From the NCBI GenBank assembly GCA_041667145.1, contig JBAYFP010000001.1:17958-81957 (forward strand): a DNA stretch of 64,000 bases, read 5' to 3'. The first letter of the stretch is position 1. Every line of letters begins with the position of its first letter. Of this stretch, positions 2,207 to 20,013 are shown one piece after another. Origin of the DNA: Minisyncoccota bacterium (GTDB taxonomy: Bacteria; Patescibacteriota; Minisyncoccia; Phycocordibacterales; UBA9973). The translations under genes and the position numbers were made by a program. A model generated the notes under the pieces. That model did no database searches. It worked only from the letters and a program-made list of their open reading frames with translations, and had not been told where the DNA came from.

Positions 2207-2806
2207 ATGGTCAAATTGGTCAATCGTACAGATTTTGTGTCTAAAATTAAGGCTAAAAAGATTAGTCTTTTTTCTGGACGTGAGATTCAAACATTATTTG
2301 GAGTTTCTAAGGTTGCTACCACTGGCATATTGCATCGTTATAGCAAGCAAGGTTTTATCATCCAAATTAAACGAGGTTTGTATGCGTTTCCTGATGCTTT
2401 ACCTCCTGAATTGTATCTTGCTAATAAACTCTATGATCCATCCTATATCTCAAGAGAGTTTGCTCTGTCATATCGTGGGATAATTCCTGAGATGGTATAT
2501 GAAATTACATCAGTGACAACTAAGGCTACACAAAAATTTAAAGCATTAGGTAAAATATATTCTTATCGTACGATTAAAAAATCTGCTTTTACTGGGTACA
2601 CAGTAGAGAAACAGCAAGGTTTTACTTTTCGCATAGCAGATGCAGAAAAAGCATTTGTTGATACTCTTTATTATCGCGTTATTTTTGGAAAAAAACCTAT
2701 AAGTCGTTTTAATAAAGAAAAAATAAATAAAAATAAAGCACTTAAATATGGTGAACTTTTTGATAATCCTAAACTTATTGGTATACTAAAGAGAACATTA
2801 TCATGA
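2207..2806 (+). CDS. AbiEi-family antitoxin / transcriptional regulator (type IV TA)
   Basis: N-terminal wHTH-like pattern ...LFGVSKVATTGILHRYSKQGFIIQIKRGLYAFPD typical of AbiEi; stop overlaps start of the next gene (ATGA). Confidence 0.55.
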   Translation: MVKLVNRTDFVSKIKAKKISLFSGREIQTLFGVSKVATTGILHRYSKQGFIIQIKRGLYAFPDALPPELYLANKLYDPSYISREFALSYRGIIPEMVYEITSVTTKATQKFKALGKIYSYRTIKKSAFTGYTVEKQQGFTFRIADAEKAFVDTLYYRVIFGKKPISRFNKEKINKNKALKYGELFDNPKLIGILKRTLS

Positions 2807-3567
2807 TTGGACCAGAACTATTAGAAAATATTGCACGACAGGAACAAACAAGCATATTCCCGAATATTGTTCGTGAATATGTGCAACATTTGTTTTTAAC
2901 CGAGTTATATCAACTTCCAGAATCGGAGAAATTGCTTTTTAAAGGTGGCACTGCTCTGCGTATAGTTTATAATTCGCCACGTTTTTCAGAAGATTTAGAC
3001 TTTTCTTTATTTGGAGTTCCTTCTAATGAAATTGGATCATTTGTTGATCGTTTATTTCTTGACGTTCTTGCAAAACTTGAAAGTACAGGTATTCACATAG
3101 AAATCGATAATAAATCTGCTCGGACATCTGGTGGATACTTTGGTCTAGCTACTCTCAATACAAATGGTTATCCTCCTATAAACATTGAAATCAATATATC
3201 ATCTAGAGGTGGAAATCATATTCAAGGAGAAATAGATAGTATCACAAATAATTTTGTACCAACGTATACGCTTTATCATTTACCACAAAAAGATATGGTT
3301 GATGAAAAAATATTTGGTGCATTGATTGATAGGAAAAAACCTCGTGATTATTATGATTTATATTTTTTGATGCGTAAGGGGATGTTGTCTCCAGAGCAAA
3401 AAAAACATCTTAGTGAAGTTGCAAAAGAAATCATTGATAGTTCTAAACAAGTTGATTTTCAAGGAGAACTTGGAATATTTTTACCTGCAAGCCAACAATC
3501 TATTATACGTGATTTTCCCCAAACATTAGAAAGAGAAATGCGTAATCAACTTTCCTTTAATCAATAA
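2803..3567 (+). CDS. AbiEii/AbiGii-family nucleotidyltransferase toxin (abortive infection)
   Basis: hallmark FKGGTALRIVYNSPRFSEDLDFS motif of the DUF1814/AbiEii NTase family; 4-bp overlap with upstream AbiEi. Confidence 0.75.
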   Translation: MIGPELLENIARQEQTSIFPNIVREYVQHLFLTELYQLPESEKLLFKGGTALRIVYNSPRFSEDLDFSLFGVPSNEIGSFVDRLFLDVLAKLESTGIHIEIDNKSARTSGGYFGLATLNTNGYPPINIEINISSRGGNHIQGEIDSITNNFVPTYTLYHLPQKDMVDEKIFGALIDRKKPRDYYDLYFLMRKGMLSPEQKKHLSEVAKEIIDSSKQVDFQGELGIFLPASQQSIIRDFPQTLEREMRNQLSFNQ

Positions 3568-7726: not shown

Positions 7727-8203
7727 AAATTATTTACTAGAACGCAAAAAGCTCCCAGCCAGCTTGATGGTTTTTAAGCCACCCGTATCCGTTTCCAGAT
7801 ACGACACAGTGAAGTGTAAACTCTGACTAGGAGTTCTTTATTCTTCACTGTGTTTTTAACCATACCTTATAGCTTTTTAAGCAATAAGGGTTAGGTCCTG
7901 TTTATTTAATTGTATTTATATTGTAACAAAAGAGAATTTGATAGTCTAATGTTTTTTTATTTGACTTTTAAAGCTTAGGAGTTAGAATAGAAATGTAGAG
8001 TTTTTAAAAAATAAAATATATGGCTTCTATTATTCAGAGAGTTTTTGTTTTTCCGCGAGACCAATAATTTTGGATACGCGAGATAGTCTTTAAAAGATTA
8101 AACCTGAAAATTGAATGCTAAATTATTACTAAAAAGATAACTCTTTTTAGGGTGTATTTAGTGTTTAATTTTTAGCTTAGGTCTAAAAATGAACAAATAA
8201 ATT

Positions 8204-8440: not shown

Positions 8441-10111
8441 ATGGATAAAGATTTTTATAAAAACTTAAAAGTAGCAGGTTATTCTAGAAAATCATCTGAA
8501 GCAGAAGATAGACAAGTACTTTCTATAGGCTCACAAAAAGATGAGATAGAGAAAATGAAAGAATTAAATGGAATTACAGACACAATTTATTACGAAGACA
8601 GTAAATCAGCAAAAACTCCAGGAATAAGAGATCATTTTTCAAACATGATACAGGATATAAAAAATGGTAAAAGAAATGCAATTGCATGTTGGAAACCCGA
8701 CAGACTTGCAAGAAATATGGATGAGGGTGGAGAGATTATAGATTTATTACAAAGAGGAATTATCAAATCAATAATTACGCCTAGTAAAACCTATACACCT
8801 TCTGAACCAAGCTGGTCATTACTTCTTGAATTTGGTATGGCTAATCAGTTTAGTCGTGATTTATCTGTAAACGTAAAAAGAGGTCAAAATAAAAAAGCTA
8901 GAATGGGTATTCCACATGGATTAGCAAAAATAGGTTTTTTGAATGACAAAACTGAAGAAAAAGGAAATAGAAAATGGTTGATTGACGAAAAAAGATTTCG
9001 AATAATAAAAGAGGTATTTAAGGTATATCTAACTGGTAATTATTCTGGAGGTCAAATGTATGATCTAGCAATAAGAGCCGGACTTACTACACCAAAACAC
9101 AAACATAGTGGTGGTAATTCAATAACCCATTCTAGAATATATACAATATTAAAAGATACAATATATGCTGGTTTTTTTCATCAAGGAGGAGAAAGATACG
9201 AGTTAGATAAAACCTTACCTAGAATTATTACCGAAGATGAACACGAGAAAGTACTTAGAATGCTTTCTGGTAAAAATATACCAAAAACACAAACTCATCA
9301 ATCGATGTATGGCGGTTTTATAATATCACCTCAAAATAAATCCATAGGTACAGACTGTAAATTTCAAATTATATGTGAGTGTAAATACAAATTTTCTTAT
9401 ATTAATAAAACTCATTGTCCAAAATGTGGAAAAGAAATAATTTTAATAAAAAATCCAAAATATCTTGAGTATGAATATTATTACAATGTTGCCTTGAAAA
9501 AGAAAAAGTGGTCAATTAAAAATATTTCACAAAGTAAAGTTACTGATTTTTTATTAGAATTTGCGGATAAGTTTTCAATGTCCCCCGCTCTTGCAAATTG
9601 GTCCAGACGCCATATCCATGAAATTCATGATTCTGAAGTTGAATCAAAATTAGTGGTTGTAGAAAGTCAAAAGGAAAGGATTGAACAACTAGAAACAAAA
9701 AAGGAAAGATACCGTAATATGTTAGCTGATGAGATGATAGAAAGAGAAGAATACGAACATGACACAAAGAAATTTAGCGCCGAAATAGAAAAAATTAAAC
9801 AAAATTCACAAAACCAAGTAAATTGGCTACAAGAAGCTGAAAAAATAATTGACTTGGGGTTAGAAATGAAAAAAATAATCAAAAATGGAACCACAATGGC
9901 AAAAAGAGAGATACTTTCTAAACTCGGTTCGAACCTAATCTGGGACGAGGAAGAACTCAATATTATCAACAAAAAACCAATCCAAGTGCTGATCGATGGA
10001 CTTCTTTGGGCCAAACAAAAAAATCCTAAGTTCGAACCTAGTTCTATAGTTGATACATCAAGTCAGAATGATGTTTTTGAGGACATTCGTCCTATCTTGC
10101 TCCGGGGGTAG
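8441..10111 (+). CDS. large serine recombinase (resolvase/invertase catalytic domain + recombinase domain + zinc ribbon)
   Basis: N-terminal AGYSRKSSEAEDRQ..SIGSQ catalytic-serine motif, DRLAR, C-terminal CPKCGKE zinc ribbon; 556 aa; 3' end overlaps the tRNA 3' end. Confidence 0.85.
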   Translation: MDKDFYKNLKVAGYSRKSSEAEDRQVLSIGSQKDEIEKMKELNGITDTIYYEDSKSAKTPGIRDHFSNMIQDIKNGKRNAIACWKPDRLARNMDEGGEIIDLLQRGIIKSIITPSKTYTPSEPSWSLLLEFGMANQFSRDLSVNVKRGQNKKARMGIPHGLAKIGFLNDKTEEKGNRKWLIDEKRFRIIKEVFKVYLTGNYSGGQMYDLAIRAGLTTPKHKHSGGNSITHSRIYTILKDTIYAGFFHQGGERYELDKTLPRIITEDEHEKVLRMLSGKNIPKTQTHQSMYGGFIISPQNKSIGTDCKFQIICECKYKFSYINKTHCPKCGKEIILIKNPKYLEYEYYYNVALKKKKWSIKNISQSKVTDFLLEFADKFSMSPALANWSRRHIHEIHDSEVESKLVVVESQKERIEQLETKKERYRNMLADEMIEREEYEHDTKKFSAEIEKIKQNSQNQVNWLQEAEKIIDLGLEMKKIIKNGTTMAKREILSKLGSNLIWDEEELNIINKKPIQVLIDGLLWAKQKNPKFEPSSIVDTSSQNDVFEDIRPILLRG

Positions 10112-10416
10112 GGATCGAACCTACGACCAATCGCTTACACTTTATCTTCTATTACTAGAAGTGTGGACTATATCATCTCCATGTTCATAACTTATGAATT
10201 TAGGAGCAAGGCGCTTCGCGCTCTAATAAATATTAGAGAGCTACTCCAAAATGGATAGTCTCTACACCTTCCTCAATTTTGTAATTGAGGCTTGGCTCGG
10301 GATTACCCTAAAAGGGCTTCCCCGAATTCACCTTGTTGTTCAACCTACCTTTTGATAGGAAGCTGCGTAATTTTTTATCGACACAGGCGACCGCTCTACC
10401 GCTGAGCTACCCCGGA
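10100..10416 (-). tRNA. tRNA (probably Asn-GUU) interrupted by a group I intron in the anticodon loop
   Basis: 5' exon TCCGGGGTAGCTCAGCGGTAGAGCGGTCGCCTGT (10383-10416) and 3' exon TAAGCGATTGGTCGTAGGTTCGATCCCTACCCCCGGAG (10100-10137) fold into a 72-nt cloverleaf with anticodon loop CUGUUAA; exact splice junction not resolvable by eye. Confidence 0.7.
10138..10382 (-). ncRNA. group I intron (IC3-like, Azoarcus/cyanobacterial tRNA intron type)
   Basis: contains AATCCCGAGCCAAGCC and GGAAGGTGTAGAGACTATCC, matching the conserved P7/P3 region (GAGCCAAGC, GAAGGUGUAGAGACUA) of Azoarcus tRNA-Ile and cyanobacterial tRNA-Leu introns. Confidence 0.7.
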
Positions 10417-10561
10417 ATGTATTTAATTAATGAAAGAACTTTAATTATCTTAACAGAAAATGAGTAAAAAACAATAGAGTAGATTTATTATTGAATTTAA
10501 AGTATAATATGAATTATATTATTAATAATCAAAATCATAACCGTTTAAGGCGGTAAATTAT

Positions 10562-10687
10562 ATGGCAAAAAGAAGTACAACCCTTGGTCCAAAAAAGAAA
10601 TCACGACGTTCACATAAGACAAAGAAAAGATTAGAAATTAAAAGGCTTATGCTAGCTAAAAAGGCTACTAAAAGAAAACATAAGTAA
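10562..10687 (+). CDS. small highly basic protein (41 aa), ribosomal-protein-like
   Basis: MAKRSTTLGPKKKSRRSHKTKKRLEIKRLMLAKKATKRKHK; AAGGCGG SD upstream; the LAKKATKRKHK tail loosely resembles bL35. Confidence 0.3.
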   Translation: MAKRSTTLGPKKKSRRSHKTKKRLEIKRLMLAKKATKRKHK

Positions 10688-10689
10688 AT

Positions 10690-11136
10690 ATGAAGTCTAT
10701 ACTTAATTTTTTTGATAAACTTGAAGATAGAATCAGAGCTCAGTTGAGTCATTACCCTATACTTTATGCATTTATTGGTGGGGTAGGGATAGTTATCTTT
10801 TGGCGTGGTGTTTGGCATACGGCAGATTTTTTTACTACAATTATTGTTTTATACCAACAAAATGAATCAATTGATTTAGGTATTCTCCCTTGGTGGGATG
10901 GACCGTTGTCTCTCGTTGTTGGGAGTGCATTGCTTTTATCCACTGGTTTATTTGTATTTGATTTCATTGGTAGTCAGTCTATCATTTCAGGGCTTAAGGG
11001 AGAGAAAAAATTAGAAGAGAAAACAGAAGAAGAAGTCAGAGAAGAAACTGGTACAATAAAAGAGATAAAAGATGAAGTAAAAAAGATATCACGTCATTTA
11101 GATGAAATTGAAAAGGAATTAGAAGAAAAAAAATAG
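10690..11136 (+). CDS. hypothetical membrane protein with C-terminal coiled coil
   Basis: two TM segments then EEK-rich tail. Confidence 0.4.
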   Translation: MKSILNFFDKLEDRIRAQLSHYPILYAFIGGVGIVIFWRGVWHTADFFTTIIVLYQQNESIDLGILPWWDGPLSLVVGSALLLSTGLFVFDFIGSQSIISGLKGEKKLEEKTEEEVREETGTIKEIKDEVKKISRHLDEIEKELEEKK

Positions 11137-11169
11137 AGTCGTTTTTATTAGTTTAATTTAGTAAATTTT

Positions 11170-11844
11170 ATGGAAAACACAAAGAGTTATAGTAAGTTGT
11201 TGATAGGTATAGCATTATTAGTTTTTTCTGTAGTCTTTTTTCTTTCTGCTCAGAATTTTTCGAAACAGGGGTCTTATATTGAGGTGAAAGGATTGTCAGA
11301 GAAAATAGTTAAAGCAGATACAGCAATCTGGTCAATCAACTTTGAAGTTAAGTCAAACAATGTTGATTCTTTGTATGCTGATATAGAAAAGAATGTTACA
11401 ACAATTAAAAATTTCTTGAAGACAAAAGGTTTTGAAGATTCGGAAATAAACATTGCTCCAGTCAATACATATCAGGATACATATAAAGATGCATTATTTA
11501 GATATAATTCTACGACACAGCTCTCTGTTTATACGAAAAAAGTAGATTTAGTGAAGTCTGCTTCTAAGGATACTTTGATTTTAGTTAAAAATGGGATAGT
11601 TATGAATCAGAATTCAGTAAATTTTGAGTTTTCAGACATAAATAGTGTCAAACCTGAAATGTTGGCTGAAGCCTTAAAGAATGCGAAGGATACAGCTCAA
11701 AAAATTGCTCAAGATTCCGGGTCTAGTTTGGGTGGCTTGCATCGAGGGAATCAAGGAGTGTTTGATATTACAGATAAAGATTCTGGTTCACCTGAATACA
11801 AAAAGATACGTTTAGTTTCTACTTTACAGTTTTTGTTAAAATAA
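11170..11844 (+). CDS. SIMPL-domain (DUF541/BP26-like) protein
   Basis: signal anchor followed by the SIMPL-type pattern (KADTAIWSINFEV .. KNAKDTAQKIAQDSG). Confidence 0.55.
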   Translation: MENTKSYSKLLIGIALLVFSVVFFLSAQNFSKQGSYIEVKGLSEKIVKADTAIWSINFEVKSNNVDSLYADIEKNVTTIKNFLKTKGFEDSEINIAPVNTYQDTYKDALFRYNSTTQLSVYTKKVDLVKSASKDTLILVKNGIVMNQNSVNFEFSDINSVKPEMLAEALKNAKDTAQKIAQDSGSSLGGLHRGNQGVFDITDKDSGSPEYKKIRLVSTLQFLLK

Positions 11845-11849
11845 ATCAT

Positions 11850-11965
11850 AAAAAGTGAAGAACGAATATTTTTGCCGGTACGGATTTTTTGAAGCTTAAA
11901 AAATCCTGAAGTTTTCGCGCCGTCGCGCTCAAAACCCCTTAAAAACATTGTTCTTCACTTTTTAT
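11850..11965. repeat. structured repeat element copy 1: conserved 71-nt core inside a locus-specific long inverted repeat
   Basis: core 11876-11946 CGGTACGGATTTTTTGAAGCTTAAAAAATCCTGAA..AAACCCCTTAAAAAC shared with 27798-27869; flanks AAAAAGTGAAGAAC / GTTCTTCACTTTTT pair. Confidence 0.7.
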
Positions 11966-12135
11966 TTTTCACAAAACTTGTCGTAGGCGTACTTATTAGA
12001 AAACATTGCGCAGGAGCTTAGAAAATAAAGGAGGTATCCCGGACTATTATTTTCTTGAGTGACGAGCATAGCAATCCGCCAGCTGGCGGATATGCGTGTT
12101 TTATAATAAGTATGCCAAGTAAAAAGATTTGTGAT

Positions 12136-12621
12136 TTATAGGAAAAGTTTTTGAATTTTTTCCCAAGGGATAGCGACGAGCATCGTTCCCAAGACTACCA
12201 AAAAAAGACCGATACCTGTTTGCAAAGTGACGCCTTCTGTCAAAACGACGACTGCAAGTATTGCTGTAAAGACTATGGAAAGTTTATCAATGACTGTCAC
12301 AGCGACAGTCGGTCCTACTGATAATGCTTGATAAAAGAAAATCCAAGACAAAGCTCCACCGAGCCCAGAGAGAATCACAAAAATCCATTGTTTTGTAGAA
12401 AGTGATGATATTGCCGTTACTGTGAGTTTTCCAAATGATAATGCAGCGATAGACACAATGATGGCCATTATGATGCCTCGAATCGCTGTCAATAAATTTG
12501 CGTCAACCCCTTTAAGTCCTAATTTAGCAAAAATAGTTCCCATGCTTGCCATAATTGCACCCAACAATGCGTATATTATATACATGGGTTTTATTATATC
12601 AAACACATTGAAATAAAGCAT
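12136..12621 (-). CDS. EamA/DMT-superfamily small transporter (4-TM)
   Basis: hydrophobic 4-helix protein with EamA-like pattern; true start probably the internal Met at 12585. Confidence 0.5.
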   Translation of the reverse strand: MLYFNVFDIIKPMYIIYALLGAIMASMGTIFAKLGLKGVDANLLTAIRGIIMAIIVSIAALSFGKLTVTAISSLSTKQWIFVILSGLGGALSWIFFYQALSVGPTVAVTVIDKLSIVFTAILAVVVLTEGVTLQTGIGLFLVVLGTMLVAIPWEKIQKLFL

Positions 12622-12641
12622 TTTAGGTGTAATATATATGT

Positions 12642-14402
12642 ATGAAAAGCGAGACGAAGCAATGTCAAAACTGCAAACAAGACTTTACAATAGAACCAGA
12701 AGATTTTAATTTCTATGAGAAAATAAAGGTTCCTCCACCGACTTTTTGCCCACTTTGTAGGGCAGAAAGGCGATTTACTTTTAGGAATGAACGTAAGCTT
12801 TTTAAAGTAAAAGATTTTTATACTGATAAGGATATTTTTTCTTTATATCCAGCACGTGATAGTAAAAAAAATTTTACTCAAGAAGAGTGGTTTAGTGACA
12901 ATTGGGATGCATTAGAATATGGTCGTGATTATGATTTTTCTATACCATTTTTTAAACAATTTTTTGATTTAGAAAAAGTAGTTCCAGTTTGGCCGCTTCG
13001 AGTTGAATACGTCGTAAATAGTCCATATAGTGCTAATGCCTCAGCACTTAAAAATTGTTATTTATGTTTTAATTCAAGTCAATCAAAAGATTGTATGTAT
13101 AATAATGCAATAGACTTCAGTACAGACTGTATTGATAATTCCCATATTTTTCAATCAGAACGATGCTATGAATGTTTTTGGACGGATAATTCCTACCAAT
13201 GTTATTATTCTATAATTTGTAAAGAATCCCATAATCTTTATTTTTGTAAAAATTGTCTCGGATGCTCGGATTGTTTTGGATGTGTAGATTTAAGGAAATC
13301 CTCGTATTGTATTTTTAATAAGCAATATACAAAAGAGGATTATAAAAAGGAGATAGAGAATATGAAATTAAATACCATTTCTGGAGTTTCAAGAGCAAGA
13401 GAGAAGGCTCGAGTTTTTTGGTTGACTATGCCAACAAAATATCATCAAGGTTTAAAAAATTACGATTCGACTGGTTCTTATGTAACGAATTGCAAAAACG
13501 TAAAAGAAAGTTTTCTAATGAGAGAAGGAGAAAATATTAAATATTCTCAATATTTACAAGTTCCGAAAAATAAAGATTGTTATGATGCTACTGCATGGGG
13601 ACAGAATATGGAACTTAATTATGAAACTTGTCTTTGTGGGGAAAATTCTTTTAATATAAAATTTTGTTCAGATTGCTGGCCTAATTTTAAAGATTCTGAA
13701 TATTGTATAAGTATGTTTAGTTGCTCGGATTGTTTTGGATGTGTTGGTTTAAAGAAAAAACAATATTGTATTTTGAATAAACAATATACAAAAGAAGAAT
13801 ATAAAATTTTAGTAGAAAAAATTAAAAAACATATGGATGATATGCCTTTTGTTGACAGTAAAGAAAGGATATATAAATATGGAGAATTTTTTCCTATAGA
13901 ATTTTCTCCATTTGGTTATAACAATACAACAGCAATTCAGTATTTTAAAATGACAAAGGAAGAAGCAGAAAAAAAGGGTTATCCATGGAAAGAAATTGAA
14001 AGGGGTGAATATAATATCACTAAAAAAGTATCAGAACTTTCTGATTCTATTAACGATGTTGATGATTCTATCTTAAAAGAAGTAATAGAATGTGAAAACT
14101 GTAAGAGACCTTATCGTATTTTAAAGAATGAATTTATTTTTTATAAAAAAGAAAATTTACCTCTACCTGATTTGTGTGATGAATGTCGTTTTAGAAGAAG
14201 AATTAATGACAGGCTGGGGATTAAGTTGTATGAAAGGTCCTGTATGTGTAAAAGCGATTCTGATGAAACAGGTGTCTATAAAAATACTGTAGAACATATA
14301 CATGGTAATGAACCTTGTGGTGAAATATTTAAAACTGGATATAGCCCTGATTCTAAAGAGATAGTATACTGTGAGAAATGTTATCAGCAGGAGGTTTATT
14401 AA
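12642..14402 (+). CDS. cysteine-rich protein, paralog 1 (about 60 Cys; N- and C-terminal zinc-ribbon-like CxxC pairs; internal repeats)
   Basis: CQNCKQDF..CPLCR N-terminal ribbon; internal duplicated blocks ..CKNCLGCSDCFGCV.. and ..CSDCFGCVGLKKKQYCILNKQYTKEEY..; C-terminal CENCK..CDECR..CEKCY. Confidence 0.6.
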   Translation: MKSETKQCQNCKQDFTIEPEDFNFYEKIKVPPPTFCPLCRAERRFTFRNERKLFKVKDFYTDKDIFSLYPARDSKKNFTQEEWFSDNWDALEYGRDYDFSIPFFKQFFDLEKVVPVWPLRVEYVVNSPYSANASALKNCYLCFNSSQSKDCMYNNAIDFSTDCIDNSHIFQSERCYECFWTDNSYQCYYSIICKESHNLYFCKNCLGCSDCFGCVDLRKSSYCIFNKQYTKEDYKKEIENMKLNTISGVSRAREKARVFWLTMPTKYHQGLKNYDSTGSYVTNCKNVKESFLMREGENIKYSQYLQVPKNKDCYDATAWGQNMELNYETCLCGENSFNIKFCSDCWPNFKDSEYCISMFSCSDCFGCVGLKKKQYCILNKQYTKEEYKILVEKIKKHMDDMPFVDSKERIYKYGEFFPIEFSPFGYNNTTAIQYFKMTKEEAEKKGYPWKEIERGEYNITKKVSELSDSINDVDDSILKEVIECENCKRPYRILKNEFIFYKKENLPLPDLCDECRFRRRINDRLGIKLYERSCMCKSDSDETGVYKNTVEHIHGNEPCGEIFKTGYSPDSKEIVYCEKCYQQEVY

Positions 14403-14405
14403 ATA

Positions 14406-14460
14406 CCCAGACGTTGGACATCTGGGGATTATCCATAGTTCCAGATGTCCAACATCTGGG
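14406..14460 (+). other. pair of GC-rich hairpins (inverted copies of a 21-nt unit) between the Cys-rich paralogs
   Basis: CCCAGACGTTGGACATCTGGG (14406-14426) and CCAGATGTCCAACATCTGG (14441-14459), each self-complementary. Confidence 0.5.
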
Positions 14461-14471
14461 TGAAGAAAATC

Positions 14472-16238
14472 ATGGAGTATAAAAATGAAAATAAAATATG
14501 TCAAAACTGTAAACAAGATTTTACAATAGAGCCAGAAGATTTCAATTTTTATGAAAAAATAAAGGTACCTTCACCGACGTTTTGTCCACTTTGTAGGGCA
14601 CAGAGAAGATTTGCTTTTAGAAATGAAAAAAAATTTTTTCGTACAAAAAGCGCATTTTCTAATAAGGACATTTTTTCTTTATTACCCAAAGAAAGTCAAA
14701 GAAAAATTGTGACCGAAGAAGAGTGGCATGGAGATACATGGGACGCGATGGAATATGCTAGTGAAATAGATTTTTCAAAACCATTTTTGAAACAAATTTT
14801 AGATTTAGAAAAACTAATACCCATTTATAATCTAAATTGTCAATTTATGGTAAATAGTCAGTATTCAGGGAATGCGACAGCCCTTAGAAATTGTTATCTT
14901 TGTTTTAATTCTAACCATTCTGAAGATTCTATGTATGGGAATGCAATCGATAGCTCAAAGGATTGTGTAGATAATTCACATGTAAACCATTCTGAAAGAT
15001 GTTATGAATGTTTTTGGTTAGAAAATTGTTATCAATGTTATTTTTCGATAATATGTAAAGATTCTTTTAATCTATATTTTTGTAAGAATTGCGTAGGATC
15101 TTCAAATTGTTTTGGGTGTATGAATTTAAGTAAATCATCTTTCTGTATTTTTAATAAACAATATACAAAAGAAGAATATGAAATTGAAATAGAAAAAATG
15201 AAATTGAACACAATTTCAGGAATTTCAAAAGCTAGAGAAAAAGCACGTATATTCTGGTTAACTAAACCAGTAAAAAATCATCAGGGTTTGAAGAATTTGA
15301 ATTCAACAGGTTCTTATGTGACAAATTGTAAAAACGTAAATGATAGTTATTTAATTAGGGAGAGTGAAAATATGCGTTATTGTCAGTATATGCAGGTTTC
15401 AGGTAACAAGGATTGTTATGATACCTCTATTTGGGGAGAACACATGGAGTTGGATTATGAGACTTGTCTTTCTGGTGAAAATTCTTACAATTTAAAATTC
15501 TGCTTAAATTGTTGGCCAGCTTGTCGGAATAATGAATATTGTATTAATCTTTTTAGTACGACGGATTGTTTTGGTTGTGTTGGTTTGAAAAAGAAACAGT
15601 ATTGTATCTTAAATAAACAATATACAAAAGAAGAATACGAAATTTTGGTAGAAAAAATTAAGAACCATATGTATGAAATGCCATATGTTGATTCACAAGG
15701 TCTTGTTTATAAATATGGGGAGTTTTTCCCAATAGAATTTTCAGCATATGGATACAACAATTCGATTGCTTTTCAACATTTCCCGATTACGAAAGATGAG
15801 GCAGAAAAAAGGGGATATTTATGGATTGAAGTTCCTCATGGAGAATATACTATTACGAAAAAAGTTTCGGATCTCCCAGATTCGATTGATGATGTTGATG
15901 ATAATTTTTTAAGGGAAGTTGTAGAATGTGAAAATTGTAAAAATGCTTTTCGTGTCTTAGAGGATGAATTAAATTTTTTACAAAAAGAGAAACTTCCTTT
16001 ACCGACGATGTGTCATGATTGTAGACATAAAAGAAGGATAAGTGATAGATTGGAAATAAAATTATATGAAAGATCTTGTATGTGCAAGGGGGACTTTGAT
16101 GAAACTGGTGTTTATAAAAATACTGTAAAACATATACATAGTGATGAACCTTGCGGTGAAATATTTAAAACTGGATATAATCCTGATTCAAAAGAAATAG
16201 TATATTGTGAAAAATGTTATCAGCAGGAGGTATATTAA
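14472..16238 (+). CDS. cysteine-rich protein, paralog 2 (tandem duplicate of 12642-14402)
   Basis: roughly two-thirds identical to paralog 1 along full length; start moved to the Met aligned with paralog 1 (the ORF-track start 14445 overlaps the hairpin). Confidence 0.6.
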   Translation: MEYKNENKICQNCKQDFTIEPEDFNFYEKIKVPSPTFCPLCRAQRRFAFRNEKKFFRTKSAFSNKDIFSLLPKESQRKIVTEEEWHGDTWDAMEYASEIDFSKPFLKQILDLEKLIPIYNLNCQFMVNSQYSGNATALRNCYLCFNSNHSEDSMYGNAIDSSKDCVDNSHVNHSERCYECFWLENCYQCYFSIICKDSFNLYFCKNCVGSSNCFGCMNLSKSSFCIFNKQYTKEEYEIEIEKMKLNTISGISKAREKARIFWLTKPVKNHQGLKNLNSTGSYVTNCKNVNDSYLIRESENMRYCQYMQVSGNKDCYDTSIWGEHMELDYETCLSGENSYNLKFCLNCWPACRNNEYCINLFSTTDCFGCVGLKKKQYCILNKQYTKEEYEILVEKIKNHMYEMPYVDSQGLVYKYGEFFPIEFSAYGYNNSIAFQHFPITKDEAEKRGYLWIEVPHGEYTITKKVSDLPDSIDDVDDNFLREVVECENCKNAFRVLEDELNFLQKEKLPLPTMCHDCRHKRRISDRLEIKLYERSCMCKGDFDETGVYKNTVKHIHSDEPCGEIFKTGYNPDSKEIVYCEKCYQQEVY

Positions 16239-16275
16239 GAGGAGGCCGGACCTTTTTAGAAGGTCCGGCCTCCTC
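16239..16275 (+). terminator. 16-bp GC-rich perfect hairpin right after the paralog-2 stop
   Basis: GAGGAGGCCGGACCTT / AAGGTCCGGCCTCCTC; no T-run follows. Confidence 0.4.
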
Positions 16276-16290
16276 TAGTTATCCACAATT

Positions 16291-16812
16291 ATGAAAAATG
16301 AAAAAAAAAATCCCAGTACTAGAGCAAAGCTCAGTACAGGACAAGGGAAGATAGTAGTAGTTAGTGGGGGATTTGATCCACTTCATATTGGACATATTCG
16401 CTATATGCAAGAGGCAAAAAAACTGGGCGATAAATTAATTGTCATTTTAAACAATGATAATTGGAAAAGACAAAAAAGAAAGCATGTTTTTATGCCTGAT
16501 CACGAACGCAAAGAAATTATAGAAGCTTTAGCTTGTGTAGACAGGGTAATTATTAGCGGACACTCTAAAAATACAAAAGGTCCTAAAAATATGAGTGTGA
16601 GCAAAGAGTTGCTTAAAATTAAACCGCATATTTTCGCCAATGGTGGAGACAGGAATGAAGAAGATGCCAAAGATCCAAACTCCTCCCAATATTTTGATGT
16701 GGAAATGTGTAAGAAACTTGGTATCCAAATGGTTTTTAACGTAGGTAGAGGCGGAAAAATCAGGAGCTCGTCTGAACTTCTCAAAGAATATTCAAAAAAA
16801 ATAAAGAAATAA
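16291..16812 (+). CDS. cytidylyltransferase-like nucleotidyltransferase (HldE/RfaE domain II / TagD-like)
   Basis: VSGGFDPLHIGHIRYMQEAKKLGD (HxGH motif), ISGHS..; N-terminus includes a palindromic GTACT element. Confidence 0.6.
   Translation: MKNEKKNPSTRAKLSTGQGKIVVVSGGFDPLHIGHIRYMQEAKKLGDKLIVILNNDNWKRQKRKHVFMPDHERKEIIEALACVDRVIISGHSKNTKGPKNMSVSKELLKIKPHIFANGGDRNEEDAKDPNSSQYFDVEMCKKLGIQMVFNVGRGGKIRSSSELLKEYSKKIKK
16312..16340. repeat. GTACT-family palindromic element (short-loop form) inside the CDS N-terminus
   Basis: CCCAGTACTAGAGCAAAGCTCAGTACAGG; compare 44881-44916 and 50562-50594. Confidence 0.55.
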
Positions 16813-16875
16813 ACTTTTTTGTTTATTTATATTCTTTTTAGTGTTATTATACTTACATAATAAAGCTCGAGTATT

Positions 16876-17991
16876 ATGGTAAAAATACTAAAGAAACAGG
16901 GGAAAATAGTCAAAGTCAAAAAACAAAACAAAAAAACTGTTTCACTTAAAACTCGTAAAAAAGGCAAAAAAATAATTAAAATAGCGAAACTTAAAAGATT
17001 TTCGCATAATCCAATTATTGAGCCTAGCCCATATCCTTGGGAATCCAAAGCTACATTTAATCCAACTGCCTTTTTAGTGGATGGAAAAATTCATCTTATT
17101 TATCGAGCAATCGGTGATGATGATGTATCAGTTTTAGGATATGCTTCTAGTTTAGATGGTTCTAAAATAAAAGAAAGGTTTGCATATTCTATTTATAATA
17201 AATTTGGAAAATTTGTAAAATCTGGAGAGCCTATAAACTATATTTCAGGAGGGGGGTGGAATGGTGGTTGTGAAGATCCACGTGTTACTTTGATAGATAA
17301 TGTAGTTTATATGATTTATACAGCTTTTGATGGTTGGGGATCTTTACGAATGGCTTTAACTTCTATCAAACTAGATGATTTTAAAAAAAAGAAATGGAAC
17401 TGGGAAAAACCAATTTTAATTTCTCCTCCTGGTGAAATTCATAAAAATTGGGTTTTATTTCCAGAAAAAATAAATGGTAAATTTGCGATTTTGCATAGTA
17501 TCTCTCCTAAAGTTTTAATAGATTATGTGAAAAATTTTGATGAATTTGATGGTACTAAATTTATAAAAAGTTATCACAGTAGCACTCCTTCTTGGGGAAA
17601 TTCATGGGATAATATAGTGAGAGGCGTAGGCCCAACGCCAATAAAAATCAAAATAGGTTGGCTTGTTTTATATCATGCCATGGATAGAAACGATCCCAAC
17701 AGATATAAATTGGGGGCTATGATTTTAGACCTCAAGGATCCAACAAAAGTTTTGTATCGTTCTCCTTGTCCAATATTAGAGCCAGATGAAGATTATGAGA
17801 ATGAAGGATTTAAAGCTGGTGTCATATATTCCTGTGGTGCAGTAGTGAAAGACGGACAGCTTTTTGTATACTATGGTGGGGCTGATAGTGTAGTTTGTGT
17901 AGCTTCTATAAAACTATCAGATTTGATAAATAATCTTGTGAAAAATAAAAATATTAAATTAGAAAAAAATAAAAAATTTGAACTTAATTAA
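16876..17991 (+). CDS. glycoside hydrolase family 130 (beta-mannoside phosphorylase-like, DUF377)
   Basis: GCEDPRV, YTAFDG, YYGGAD hallmark motifs. Confidence 0.7.
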   Translation: MVKILKKQGKIVKVKKQNKKTVSLKTRKKGKKIIKIAKLKRFSHNPIIEPSPYPWESKATFNPTAFLVDGKIHLIYRAIGDDDVSVLGYASSLDGSKIKERFAYSIYNKFGKFVKSGEPINYISGGGWNGGCEDPRVTLIDNVVYMIYTAFDGWGSLRMALTSIKLDDFKKKKWNWEKPILISPPGEIHKNWVLFPEKINGKFAILHSISPKVLIDYVKNFDEFDGTKFIKSYHSSTPSWGNSWDNIVRGVGPTPIKIKIGWLVLYHAMDRNDPNRYKLGAMILDLKDPTKVLYRSPCPILEPDEDYENEGFKAGVIYSCGAVVKDGQLFVYYGGADSVVCVASIKLSDLINNLVKNKNIKLEKNKKFELN

Positions 17992-17997
17992 AATTAT

Positions 17998-19929
17998 ATG
18001 TTTGTTGTAAAAAAATCAGAACACAATCCTATACTTGTTCCCAATGAAGATCATTATTGGGAAGAATTTGCGAGTTTTAATCTTTGTCCGGTTAGACATA
18101 ATAAATCGATTTATGGACTTTACAGAGCCATCTCTGCAGTCGATATTTTACAAAATCCTCGTCAAAGATCTATCATAGGGATTACTCAGAGTAAAGATGG
18201 AATACATTTTAAAAATCGTGTGCCGTTTATTGTTCCTAAAGAAGAGTGGGATCAATTTGGTTGTGAAGATCCGCGGGTGACATATTTTGAAGGTGTTTTT
18301 TACACTTTTTATACGGCGCTTTCAGAGTATCCTTTCAACGCAAAAGGAATCAAGGTGGCCGTCGCAATATCTCGAGATTTAAAGAAGATTGACGAAAGAC
18401 ATTTAGTGACACCTTTTAACGCTAAAGCCATGACTCTCTTTCCAGAACGTATAAATGGAAAGATTGTTGTTGTTTTTTCTTACCACACTGATTCTCCTCC
18501 GACAAAAATAGCATTTGCGATGTTGGATAAGATAGAAGATTTGTGGTCGCAAACATTTTGGGAAAAATGGGAAAATAAAGTTGATGATTATACAATTGAT
18601 TTGAAACGTACACAGTATGATCATATCGAAGTCGGAGCTCCACCACTTAAAACAAAATACGGCTGGCTTTTTATTTATTCGCATATTCAAAATTATTTTC
18701 AATCACCTAATAATTTAGACAGAATTTTCGGTATTGAAGCGGTGTTGCTTGATTTAAAAGATCCAAGAAAGATAATTGCTAGAACTTCTGGACCGATGAT
18801 CGTTCCAGAAGAGTCTTATGAACTTTCAGGATATGTTCCAGATATAGTTTTCCCGACTGGCGCACTAATAGAAAAAGATACTCTTACGATATATTATGGT
18901 GCAGCTGATACTACGGTTTGCTCTGCAAAGGTTTGTTTGTCTGATCTTATTTCAAACATGCTTCCTAAGTTTAGAGAGGGCTCTCGTTTCAAGCGTTCTC
19001 TTAAAAATCCTATTATTGTTCCAATAAAAGAAAATAAATGGGAAGAGCAATCTACATTTAATCCCGCGTCAATATTACTTAATGGAAAGATACATATAGT
19101 GTATCGTGCAATGTCGCAGGACAATACATCTACACTTGGATATGCAATGACAAAGAATGGTGTTGATGTGATAGAACGTTTATCTTTACCCATCTATGTT
19201 CCTCGTGAAGATTTTGAAAATAAAAAAGTCAGTAATGGTAATTCTGGTTGTGAAGATCCGAGACTAACAAAGATTGGTAAGAATATTTATTTGTGTTATA
19301 CAGCTTTTGATAGTATTGGCCCTCCTAGGGTAGCTATCTCATCTATTACGGAAAAAGATTTTATTTCTCATAATTGGAGATGGGAAAAACCATTTTTAAT
19401 AACGCCACAAGGAATGGATGACAAAGATGCTTGTCTTTTTCCTAATAAATTTAAATTAGGTTATTTTATTTTGCATCGTTTAGACAATGAAATTTGTGGT
19501 GATTATTTAAACACTTTAGACTTTAAACATGAAGCTGTAAAAAAATGTATAAGAATTATTGGGCCTCGAGTAAACACATGGGACAGTGCTAAAGTAGGTA
19601 TCTCTGCTCCACCGATTAAAACAAAATATGGCTGGCTTTTGCTCTATCATGGAGTATCCAAAAGTCATAGTACTTATCGCATTGGGTGTGTTTTACTTGA
19701 TCTTAAAGATCCTGGCATTGTGCTTGCACGTAGTACTGAACCAATTTTTGAACCTGAAGAACAGTATGAAAAAATTGGTGTAGTTAATAATGTTGTATTT
19801 CCATGTGGAATGATAGTAAAAAATAAATTACTTTATATTTATTATGGAGGAGGAGATCGTGTGGTGGGGGTAGCCACGATGAAGCTTGATGTCATTTTGA
19901 AGGTACTTTTACATGGTACAAAATTATGA
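17998..19929 (+). CDS. tandem double GH130 domain protein
   Basis: two full repeats each with GCEDPR(V/L), YTA(L/F), YYG(A/G)(A/G)D motifs; 643 aa. Confidence 0.7.
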   Translation: MFVVKKSEHNPILVPNEDHYWEEFASFNLCPVRHNKSIYGLYRAISAVDILQNPRQRSIIGITQSKDGIHFKNRVPFIVPKEEWDQFGCEDPRVTYFEGVFYTFYTALSEYPFNAKGIKVAVAISRDLKKIDERHLVTPFNAKAMTLFPERINGKIVVVFSYHTDSPPTKIAFAMLDKIEDLWSQTFWEKWENKVDDYTIDLKRTQYDHIEVGAPPLKTKYGWLFIYSHIQNYFQSPNNLDRIFGIEAVLLDLKDPRKIIARTSGPMIVPEESYELSGYVPDIVFPTGALIEKDTLTIYYGAADTTVCSAKVCLSDLISNMLPKFREGSRFKRSLKNPIIVPIKENKWEEQSTFNPASILLNGKIHIVYRAMSQDNTSTLGYAMTKNGVDVIERLSLPIYVPREDFENKKVSNGNSGCEDPRLTKIGKNIYLCYTAFDSIGPPRVAISSITEKDFISHNWRWEKPFLITPQGMDDKDACLFPNKFKLGYFILHRLDNEICGDYLNTLDFKHEAVKKCIRIIGPRVNTWDSAKVGISAPPIKTKYGWLLLYHGVSKSHSTYRIGCVLLDLKDPGIVLARSTEPIFEPEEQYEKIGVVNNVVFPCGMIVKNKLLYIYYGGGDRVVGVATMKLDVILKVLLHGTKL

Positions 19930-19942
19930 TAGAATAGGGACA

Positions 19943-20013
19943 CTTGTCCCGTACTAAATTTTTGATTACGGGATATAAGGATAAAGATTATTAGTTAAAA
20001 TTTTAGTACTGGG
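19943..20013 (+). promoter_or_regulatory. GTACT-family long hairpin abutting the hpf start codon
   Basis: arms CTTGTCCCGTACTAAATTTTTGA / AAAATTTTAGTACTGGG, then ATG; same arms recur at 48408-48480. Confidence 0.55.

Follow-up and report, generated by a model that had tools for sequence, protein, structure and literature searches.

The locus analysed here is very probably a tRNA-Asn(GUU) gene with a 245-nt group I ribozyme, lacking any ORF, inserted at 35/36, and a member of the published class that Williams (2020; 10.1101/2020.01.27.920355) named "Asn.4Ug". The arrangement is not novel but an ordinary further example of an experimentally validated class, one that is enriched in Patescibacteria. 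Nakagawa et al. (2026, mSystems; PMC13011429) showed that Patescibacteria tRNA-Asn introns at 35/36 self-splice in vitro, sequenced the ligated tRNA-Asn and found it joined at 35/36, and reported that an ωG-to-C mutant lost splicing. We compared the window (the whole 64-kb stretch of DNA that was analysed) with homologs from a scan of species-level genomes, which yielded at least 111 typed loci, the window being one of 68 Asn loci. The original prediction had called tRNA-Asn an unusual host for such an intron; this is out of date, since the class was named in 2020 and validated in 2026, and tRNA-Asn is the commonest host of the intron lineage among the matches listed (68 of 111 typed loci).

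The intervening sequence lies in the anticodon loop and holds AAUCCCGAGCCAAGCC and GGAAGGUGUAGAGACUAUCC. It scores 66.7 bits with the Rfam Intron_gpI model (RF00028), whose gathering score is 50, with E = 9.8e-15 for the 64-kb window; the P1 that the Rfam alignment sets upstream of the tRNA (10417-10456) is a misplacement. The 5' exon comprises the acceptor 5' strand, the D arm, the 5' strand of the anticodon stem and loop residues C32, U33, G34 and U35, the last of which, at 10383, is U(-1) of the 5' splice site. The 3' exon begins with U36, A37 and A38 and continues through the 3' strand of the anticodon stem, the variable loop, the T arm and the acceptor 3' strand to the discriminator G73 at 10100; CCA is not encoded in it. 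Joined, the exons form a 72-nt cloverleaf that ARAGORN reads as tRNA-Asn(gtt), with a 7-bp acceptor stem and the 7-nt loop CUGUUAA. The exon positions, the cloverleaf, the insert of about 245 nt and the core motifs were all found at the coordinates that the original prediction had given for a group I intron splitting a tRNA, a reading now upheld by a covarying fold and by the covariance-model search it had proposed, which scored above threshold.

To evaluate the fold, we derived a secondary structure by hand (76 pairs in 15 helices) and tested it on an alignment of 33 homologs (Table 1). Across these homologs 90.3% of cells are paired, compared with 35–44% when the partners are slid, and the covariation score of 0.471 exceeds that of shuffled alignments (0.138; 0 of 500 reach it) and of slid controls (0.04–0.13), with double changes in 55 of the 76 pairs. 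The window matches every one of the 65 columns that are invariant over the 33 homologs, among which are both P7 strands, J8/7, the internal guide sequence (IGS), P9.0 and ωG. The P7 motif agrees with the Rfam consensus. The P7.1/P7.2 helices are 76–78% paired with compensatory changes in every pair, in an alignment that mixes two sub-architectures. P1 is short, the position after its four exon and two intron pairs being a C-C mismatch; P10, examined by eye, is a weak match (UAA/UUA, displaced by one nucleotide), and the bases on the 5' side of the IGS vary from relative to relative.

Table 1. Features of the split tRNA-Asn gene, its intron and the adjoining recombinase gene (positions in the window).
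Feature	Position	Strand	Sequence or evidence
tRNA-Asn(GUU) 5' exon, 34 nt	10383..10416	-	UCCGGGGUAGCUCAGCGGUAGAGCGGUCGCCUGU
Group I intron, 245 nt, without ORF	10138..10382	-	Rfam RF00028, covarying fold, junction tests
P1 5' strand, CUGU/GU	10381..10386	-	4 exon nt + 2 intron nt; U•G wobble at 10383; P1 95% of cells paired, both intron-side pairs covary
IGS (P1 3' strand), ACGCAG	10363..10368	-	GCAG pairs with exon CUGU
P2 hairpin, CCUAUC-AAAA-GGUAGG	10344..10359	-	96.5% paired; compensatory changes in 6/6 pairs
P3 5' strand, CAAGGUG, partner 10207-10213	10329..10335	-	99.6% paired; 3/7 pairs covary
P4-P5 domain, UCGGGG AA GCCCU UUU AGGGU AA UCCCGA	10297..10325	-	P4 99.5% paired, 4/6 covary
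P6/P6a, GCC AAG CCUCAAUU ACAA AAUUGAGG AA GGU	10266..10296	-	Covariation; P6 100% paired; P6a 95.8% paired, 6/6 aligned pairs covary
P7 5' strand, G-A(bulge)-GACUA	10256..10262	-	Guanosine-binding helix; 6/6 pairs invariant (33 sequences)
P7.1/P7.2 extra module, P7 to P3'	10218..10255	-	Compensatory changes
P7.1, UCCA-UUU-UGGA	10245-10255	-	Followed by GUA linker
P7.2, GCUCUCUAAUA...UAUUAGAGCGC	10218-10241	-	Hairpin
P3 3' strand, CGCCUUG, within conserved GAAGCGCC motif	10207..10213	-	Alignment
P8/P8a, CUCC...UUCAU-AAGUU-AUGAA...GGAG	10177..10206	-	P8 97% paired, 3/4 covary
J8/7 (AUGAUA), then P7 3' strand (UAGUCC)	10165..10176	-	Invariant block AUGAKAUAGUCC
Intron 3' end: P9.0, P9, ωG	10138..10164	-	P9.0 pairing, covariation; AC (10164-10163) with GU (10140-10139), around P9 CUUCUA-GUAA-UAGAAG (10146-10161)
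tRNA-Asn(GUU) 3' exon, 38 nt	10100..10137	-	UAAGCGAUUGGUCGUAGGUUCGAUCCCUACCCCCGGAG
Large serine recombinase gene, 556 aa	8441..10111	+	Pfam Resolvase 60.5 bits, Recombinase 32.8 bits

The window looks like the chromosome of a small-genome member of the Patescibacteria: it encodes the housekeeping proteins DnaE, PPDK and a class I aminoacyl-tRNA synthetase, indicating that it is chromosomal. A SIMPL-like protein is also encoded in the neighbourhood. Scans for promoters near the locus returned two promoter-like sites against 2.4 expected, which is the background level, and a terminator scan gave nothing over background. Ten related loci were searched for LOOT RNA without a match, and a literature search on it was likewise empty.

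The recombinase gene is convergent with the tRNA gene and overlaps it by 12 nt, its last three codons and stop (CTC CGG GGG TAG) reading antisense to the 3' end of the tRNA acceptor/T stem. Inspection of its translation by eye revealed a Cys-rich zinc-ribbon region and a long coiled-coil segment. An AbiE toxin-antitoxin pair is encoded on the recombinase side of the tRNA, the recombinase standing at the edge of that stretch. Recombinase homologs abut tRNA-Asn in six other loci among those listed: five with an intact frame (L038, L008, L052, L043 and L031, from genomes of Patescibacteria and Omnitrophota), all of which read into the tRNA in the same frame, and L002, which carries a truncated homolog at the same place. 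On viral contigs, homologs abut genes for tRNA-Trp, Ala, Gly, Gln, Glu and Asn. The family is divergent, with 22–34% identity to the window protein. This recurrent adjacency in related and viral loci lends circumstantial support to the earlier proposal that the tRNA is an integration target of the overlapping recombinase. The window protein probably serves as the integrase of an element that entered at the 3' end of tRNA-Asn; its gene is no part of the intron. More tentatively, and with the odds slightly against it, this divergent family of large serine recombinases may use tRNA gene 3' ends as its integration site. When the 64-kb window was searched for repeats of the tRNA 3' end, allowing up to 3 mismatches, the tRNA itself was the only match; serine integrases leave no long repeats. 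No empty-site match for the recombinase element was found among the related loci, and nothing in the 3' flanks of relatives without the recombinase corresponds to the sequence that lies past it in the window.

Should the recombinase mark a mobile element, the tRNA and its intron might belong to that element rather than to the host chromosome. The 12-nt overlap, the AbiE pair on the recombinase side and the recombinase homologs that adjoin intron-split tRNA-Asn in two viral-contig loci (L125 and L129) all favour this reading, which we nonetheless consider improbable: about 32 of the 38 Asn.4 loci with enough 3' flank, among those listed, have no adjacent recombinase, and on the 5' side of the tRNA, L074 and L038 carry formyltransferase-like housekeeping genes, which the window has as well. 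Moreover, an integrase that abuts the 3' end of a host tRNA is established as the usual outcome of site-specific integration (cf. PMC7192596). A chromosomal tRNA-Asn, probably with an element inserted beside it, is the reading that we retain.

The intron itself also belongs to a lineage with signs of mobility. In the window the P1 loop is 12 nt long and holds no homing endonuclease ORF, while in about 13 relatives among the matches listed the P1 loop contains an HNH-like ORF of 100–135 aa; the two of these that were scanned with Pfam HNH gave E-values of 4e-4 and 8e-4, slightly below the gathering score. HNH endonuclease genes have likewise been reported in some published copies (PMC13011429). 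The HNH-like ORFs in related copies suggest that the intron lineage probably spreads, or once spread, by homing, the endonuclease ORF of the window copy having been either lost or never present. A phage origin of the intron was considered and rejected; the sole match in the phage collection, to Pseudoalteromonas phage pYD6-A, is 78% over 85 nt of the core.

We infer that the window copy splices from the in vitro self-splicing, at the same junction, of a homolog whose precursor is 61.5% identical to that of the window. It is very unlikely that the intron has instead decayed and lost splicing, leaving the split gene a pseudogene and an intact tRNA-Asn elsewhere in the genome. The weak P10 and the lack of a homing endonuclease ORF would fit decay, and our view spans 64 kb of the genome, yet all core helices are intact and the invariant columns are retained without exception. 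The exons provide further evidence against decay: the mature tRNA of the window matches that of L108 exactly and differs by one base from those of L120 and L033, and the introns of these three loci have diverged from the window intron despite the near-identical mature tRNAs, which indicates purifying selection on the exons. In addition, the interrupted tRNA-Asn or tRNA-Asp is the sole genomic copy in both genomes used for the splicing assays of Nakagawa et al. (PMC13011429).

For an intron that splices, the position of the junction determines whether the product is tRNA-Asn(GUU) or tRNA-Thr(UGU), and the evidence decides for Asn and an insertion at 35/36. The configuration CUGU/...G/UAA occurs in 68 of 111 typed loci among the matches listed (67 besides the window), and in 17 of the 68 no other U(-1)/ωG junction is possible. 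The only U•G wobble in P1 (CUGU/GU with ACGCAG) falls at U35. The P9.0 pairing (AC/GU) fixes ωG at 10138, where P9.0 pairs in 68 of 68 introns through 10 dinucleotide combinations; at the Thr-junction ω, both pairs form in about 1%. A position-aware analysis across the listed homologs located the IGS GCAG in all 68 Asn.4 introns, directly 5' of P2 wherever the context is seen, and in introns of other host classes the guide follows the exon, being GUGA in Met/Ile2.5 and GGGN in Phe.2. U1:A72 and G73 are present in the window and in all Asn.4 homologs, and most annotated phage tRNAs that match the spliced tRNA over its full length are tRNA-Asn. The original prediction, which had preferred tRNA-Asn(GUU) with a ...CUGU exon end and a ...GUG intron end, citing U1-A72 and the discriminator G, was thus right to the base, and the folding it recommended for fixing the splice sites places them at 35/36 through the P1 wobble and P9.0. 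A tRNA-Thr(UGU) with the intron 2 nt further 5', between positions 33 and 34 (10384-10140), is barely credible: splicing there would likewise have U(-1) before the cut and a G at the intron's 3' end, and the joined exons fold into a valid cloverleaf, called Thr(TGT) by ARAGORN (ARAGORN and tFind treat many published homologs in the same way), but this junction sets U33 opposite A rather than G in the conserved P1, has no conserved alternative IGS, lacks P9.0 support and, in 17 homologs, lacks the G at ω. Uninterrupted tRNA-Thr(UGU) genes number just two in these loci, a small sample, and both have G1:C72 and U73 in place of the Asn-like pair and discriminator; the spliced tRNA finds its best annotated matches in tRNA-Asn, and the sequenced product of the homolog spliced in vitro is joined at 35/36.

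On the Asn(GUU) assignment, we propose the following pathway. The precursor would be transcribed from the minus strand, and the intron is predicted to fold into a two-domain core (P4-P6 and P3-P9) with the additional P7.1/P7.2 module. The guide GCAG and exon CUGU would form P1 with U35 in the U•G wobble, and an external guanosine held in P7 would attack after U35. P9.0 (AC/GU) would then dock the terminal G, 10138, in the same site, allowing the free 3'-OH of U35 to attack after ωG. Joining of ...CUGU to UAA... would restore the loop CUGUUAA, and the predicted ligated tRNA reads ...GCCUGUUAAGCG... across the junction. Because CCA is not encoded, it would be added post-transcriptionally.

The main value of the locus lies in annotation. 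Default tRNA finders miss the gene, as did ARAGORN in its default run, and intron-aware ones call it tRNA-Thr, as ARAGORN did (Thr(UGU)) with its intron option. In either case the genome seems to be without tRNA-Asn and scores as less complete, a point also made in published work on tRNA introns. The locus adds one more sequence to the experimentally validated class, and P9.0 covariation together with IGS conservation provides a simple sequence-only rule for the Asn/Thr ambiguity.

Compared with the published Asn.4Ug introns, the window copy shares the host tRNA, the CUGU/UAA site, U(-1) and ωG, the IGS GCAG, P9.0, the core and the P7.1/P7.2 module, as well as the Asn/Thr mis-annotation by ARAGORN, and its size falls inside the published range. 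Its precursor shares 66% identity with a published copy from Paceibacteria that also has this module, and the nearest relative among the matches listed is L120 (83% identity over 393 nt). Nothing essential differs: the window copy is a new sequence variant that lacks the HNH ORF some members have, and it has beside it a serine recombinase, which is not discussed in Williams 2020 or PMC13011429.

The original prediction had assigned the intron to the Azoarcus/cyanobacterial (IC3) type, and part of this comparison stands. The introns of Azoarcus tRNA-Ile(CAU) and cyanobacterial tRNA-Leu(UAA) and tRNA-fMet are likewise located in the anticodon loop, have core strands nearly identical to those of the window (AAUUCGGGGAA, CCGAGCCAAG, GAAGGUGUAGAGACUA and AUAGUCC), and share the U•G at the 5' splice site, ωG and the absence of an ORF. 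Their insertion sites, however, are 36/37, 34/35 and 33/34 rather than 35/36, and the stretch from P7 to P3', about 3 nt in the Azoarcus seed row, is 42 nt in the window and forms two hairpins (P7.1/P7.2). This module and the published typing speak against IC3: covariance models typed 25 of 28 introns at 35/36 as IA and no Patescibacteria tRNA intron as IC (PMC13011429). The window intron does not have the compact IC3 core with a short J7/3, and it does have the IA trait of helices P7.1/P7.2 between P7 and P3', as judged by architecture rather than by subgroup models.

The phage T4 td and nrdB introns belong to subgroup IA and contain P7.1/P7.2. Introns of this type resemble the present one in the hairpins between P7 and P3' and in the HNH endonucleases of some relatives. 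They differ in that their host is a protein-coding gene instead of a tRNA and in that the endonuclease ORF of the window's relatives, unlike theirs, lies in the P1 loop; the core sequence of the window is much closer to that of the bacterial tRNA introns.

The recombinase neighbour is less ordinary and less explored than the intron. Large serine integrases of the phiC31, Bxb1 and A118 type combine Resolvase and Recombinase domains, as the window protein does; its zinc-ribbon and coiled-coil regions and its place beside AbiE genes are further likenesses. The window recombinase abuts and reads into a tRNA gene, whereas the S-Int class is not known for tRNA targets (PMC7192596): that 2020 survey of integrative elements found S-Int at tRNA genes in 14 of 297 elements and requested experimental proof. 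If the use of tRNA gene 3' ends by this family holds true, it would represent a sizeable, lineage-wide targeting of tRNA genes by serine integrases, which was rare in that survey, and the recombinase/tRNA junction may be worth a separate study of how serine integrases choose their targets.

The tRNA interrupted by a group I intron at 10100–10416 is real, and both the exon and intron coordinates of the original prediction and the junction that it preferred proved right. The Rfam group I intron model (Intron_gpI; gathering score 50, E computed over the window) matches the window, as had been anticipated, with 66.7 bits (E = 9.8e-15), and the core motifs first quoted for the intron all lie inside the 245-nt insert. 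The model's placement of P1 at 10417–10456, an AT-rich segment upstream of the tRNA, is an artefact, since the true P1 uses the anticodon loop. In default mode ARAGORN called no tRNA at 10100–10416 of the window; the joined exons give a 72-nt tRNA-Asn(GTT), and the unspliced DNA run with the intron option (-i) gives a tRNA-Thr(TGT). Given the default miss and the Thr(UGU) call with -i, this tRNA-Asn would be absent from genome annotation.

Features of the split tRNA gene and its surroundings
Feature	Position	Strand	Basis or remark
AbiEi antitoxin / AbiEii nucleotidyltransferase toxin pair (type IV toxin-antitoxin)	2207-3567	plus	recombinase side of tRNA
LOOT RNA (RF03000), full-length match, 77.1 bits, E 9e-13	7766-7897	minus	Rfam
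Large serine recombinase gene, 556 aa	8441-10111	plus	Resolvase and Recombinase domains
tRNA 3' half	10137-10100	minus	sequence
Group I intron between tRNA halves, 245 nt	10382-10138	minus	Rfam match and sequence
tRNA 5' half	10416-10383	minus	sequence
ORF, 586 aa, very rich in Cys-x-x-Cys motifs	12642-14402	plus	no Pfam match
ORF, 597 aa, adjoining the 586-aa ORF	14445-16238	plus	no Pfam match

If the 5' exon must end in U and the intron in G, two junctions (arrows) are possible: CUGU↓...GUG↓UAA, which yields Asn-GUU with the intron at 35/36, and CU↓...AAG↓UGUAA, which yields Thr-UGU with the intron at 33/34. Both had been left standing at the outset; four independent lines (P1, relatives, P9.0, and the tRNA body) now favor Asn. 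Group I 5' cleavage takes place at a U•G wobble in P1, and in the conserved helix directly upstream of P2, where CUGU↓GU pairs with ACGCAG, the sole such wobble falls at U35 (10383). When one genome for each bacterial species was scanned for the core pattern, at least 120 related loci were recovered. Among the matches listed, 68 of 111 typed split-tRNA loci, window included, share the CUGU↓...G↓UAA configuration; 17 of these 68 offer no alternative U/G junction, and all 68 carry the internal guide GCAG, while same-family introns in other tRNAs carry their own exon-matched guide (GUGA for ...UCAU↓, GGGN for ...NCU↓). P9.0, formed by the dinucleotide that follows the P7 3' strand and the one that precedes the terminal G, is paired in 68/68 of the same listed sequences, with ten dinucleotide combinations in use (e.g., AC/GU, AA/UU, AU/AU, and GC/GC), whereas with the Thr-type terminal G the two pairs occur together in 1%. 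Finally, U1:A72 and discriminator G73 occur in the mature tRNA, as in all homologs among the matches listed; two uninterrupted tRNA-Thr(UGU) genes from the same loci, a small sample, have G1:C72 and U73. Annotated phage tRNAs that match the spliced sequence are mostly tRNA-Asn.

We derived a secondary structure by hand (P1, P2, P3, P4-P5, P6/P6a, P7, P7.1, P7.2, P8/P8a, P9.0, and P9) and evaluated it against 33 Asn-type introns without an ORF, aligned with MAFFT. Standard pairs occupy 90.3% of cells, both partners change in 55 of the 76 pairs, and the covariation score is 0.471 versus 0.138 with shuffled partners (0 of 500 shuffles reach the observed value), falling to 0.04–0.13 when partners are slid by 1–3 columns. 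P7 and J8/7 do not vary across the alignment. The window copy retains 65 of the 65 invariant columns, and its mature tRNA matches that of the L108 locus exactly and those of L120 and L033 at all but one base, despite diverged introns, which counts against a decayed relic; we infer that the window copy is spliced.

The recombinase gene is convergent with the tRNA and overlaps it by 12 nt, its last three codons and stop (CTC CGG GGG TAG) being the antisense of the tRNA 3' end. Among the matches listed, about 38 Asn-type loci have a 3' flank long enough to judge this adjacency, and homologs adjoin tRNA-Asn at the same position in L038, L008, L052, L043, and L031, with proteins 22–34% identical to the window recombinase, the same reading phase into the tRNA, and overlaps of 12–87 nt; L002 carries a truncated copy at this position. 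In nine of 80 viral-contig loci encoding relatives (L125, L126, L129–L131, L134, L140, L145, and L153), a tRNA converges on the recombinase and lies at its stop codon or overlaps it; two of these tRNAs are intron-split tRNA-Asn, two are Gly, Trp, Ala, Gln, and Glu occur once each, and one call is odd. G+C is slightly lower on the recombinase side (26–31% over ~3–10 kb, against 33% for the window), and the AbiEi/AbiEii pair is plausibly cargo. These observations fit an integrated element with the tRNA 3' end as attB; however, we found neither att sites nor element ends in the window, nor an empty site among relatives, so the proposal that this tRNA is an integration target is plausible but unproven. 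The literature regards serine-integrase targeting of tRNA 3' ends as rare and unproven: such integrases are not known for it, 14 of 297 lie at t(m)RNA sites, and experimental proof has been asked for (Mageeney et al., PMC7192596). The recurrent junction points to a possible family of serine integrases with tRNA 3' ends as their targets, and is the only part of these results that may merit separate attention.

The window is chromosomal, as indicated by DnaE, pyruvate phosphate dikinase, a class I aminoacyl-tRNA synthetase, and four other tRNAs. The LOOT RNA has a membrane-protein gene on one side and the recombinase module on the other; ten related loci showed no copy of it, and a literature search for it returned nothing. 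In L074 and L038, genes on the tRNA 5' side match window genes at 20.0–21.9 kb (a formyltransferase-like gene and its neighbor). The window has ~9.6 kb of extra genes in between (10417–20000), among them a SIMPL-like gene, an EamA-like gene, the two large ORFs, and a GH130 gene; these extra genes stem from a second insertion or else from a rearrangement.

The intron had been assigned to the Azoarcus/cyanobacterial type. Its core strands do closely resemble IC3 tRNA introns, but the Azoarcus intron has about three nucleotides between the P7 5' and P3 3' strands, whereas the window intron has 42, which make up two hairpins that covary (P7.1 and P7.2). Additional helices between P7 and P3' are a hallmark of subgroup IA. 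Subgroup covariance models typed 25 of 28 introns at 35/36 as IA and no Patescibacteria tRNA intron as IC (Nakagawa et al. 2026, mSystems, PMC13011429). The module takes two forms among tRNA-Asn introns (alignment A1, columns ~197–240; window 10218–10255): 'UCCN-loop-NGGA GUA(G/C) hairpin GAAGCGCC', window included, and 'GAG..GAGG..CCAAUAA..', the form of Williams's Pam37 seed and of the in vitro-spliced copy.

Some published tRNA-Asn intron copies carry HNH endonuclease genes (PMC13011429). In line with this, about 13 relatives among the matches listed have introns of ~545–600 nt whose P1 loop holds a 100–135-aa HNH-like ORF, downstream of the 5' splice site and upstream of the internal guide (ORF-bearing loci: L008, L018, L019, L025, L040, L043, L052, L055, L061, L073, L079, L087, L090, and L107). 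The ORFs share a CxxC...HH...CxxCH layout, and two match Pfam HNH slightly below the curated cutoff (E = 4e-4 and 8e-4). Copies in L008, L029, L048, L071, and L112 are seemingly truncated; the P1 loop of the window copy is only 12 nt.

An unannotated segment of Pseudoalteromonas phage pYD6-A (JF974296.1, 9301–9386) is 78% identical to the intron core (window query positions 121–205), suggesting a possible same-family group I intron in that phage genome. Besides the window, the matches listed include 67 Asn-type loci, of which about 41 are Patescibacteria (hand count by record title). The nearest intron relatives among them are Patescibacteria too (L120, a Nomurabacteria bin, 83% over 393 nt), and from these relatives a Patescibacteria affiliation of the window is inferred; the remainder of the 67 loci are Acidobacteriota, Cyanobacteria, Nitrospirota, Deltaproteobacteria-like bins, Elusimicrobia, and Margulisiibacteriota. 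Williams 2020 (bioRxiv 10.1101/2020.01.27.920355) brought the known host settings for group I introns in bacterial tRNAs to 21, up from four, with 'Pam37.Asn.4Ug' in the seed alignment. Nakagawa et al. (PMC13011429) reported Patescibacteria tRNA-Asn(GUU) with group I introns at 35/36, a two-nucleotide miscall of these as Thr(UGU) by ARAGORN and tFind, and self-splicing in vitro, with the ligated tRNA sequenced and an ωG-to-C control. Because the Asn.4Ug class is published and splices in vitro, the original prediction's view of tRNA-Asn as an unusual host falls; Asn is the commonest host of this intron lineage among the matches listed. The window intron is thus a further member of a published, experimentally validated class: its precursor shows 61.5% identity to the one that was spliced in vitro and 66% to a Paceibacteria copy from the literature, with which it shares the P7.1/P7.2 module.
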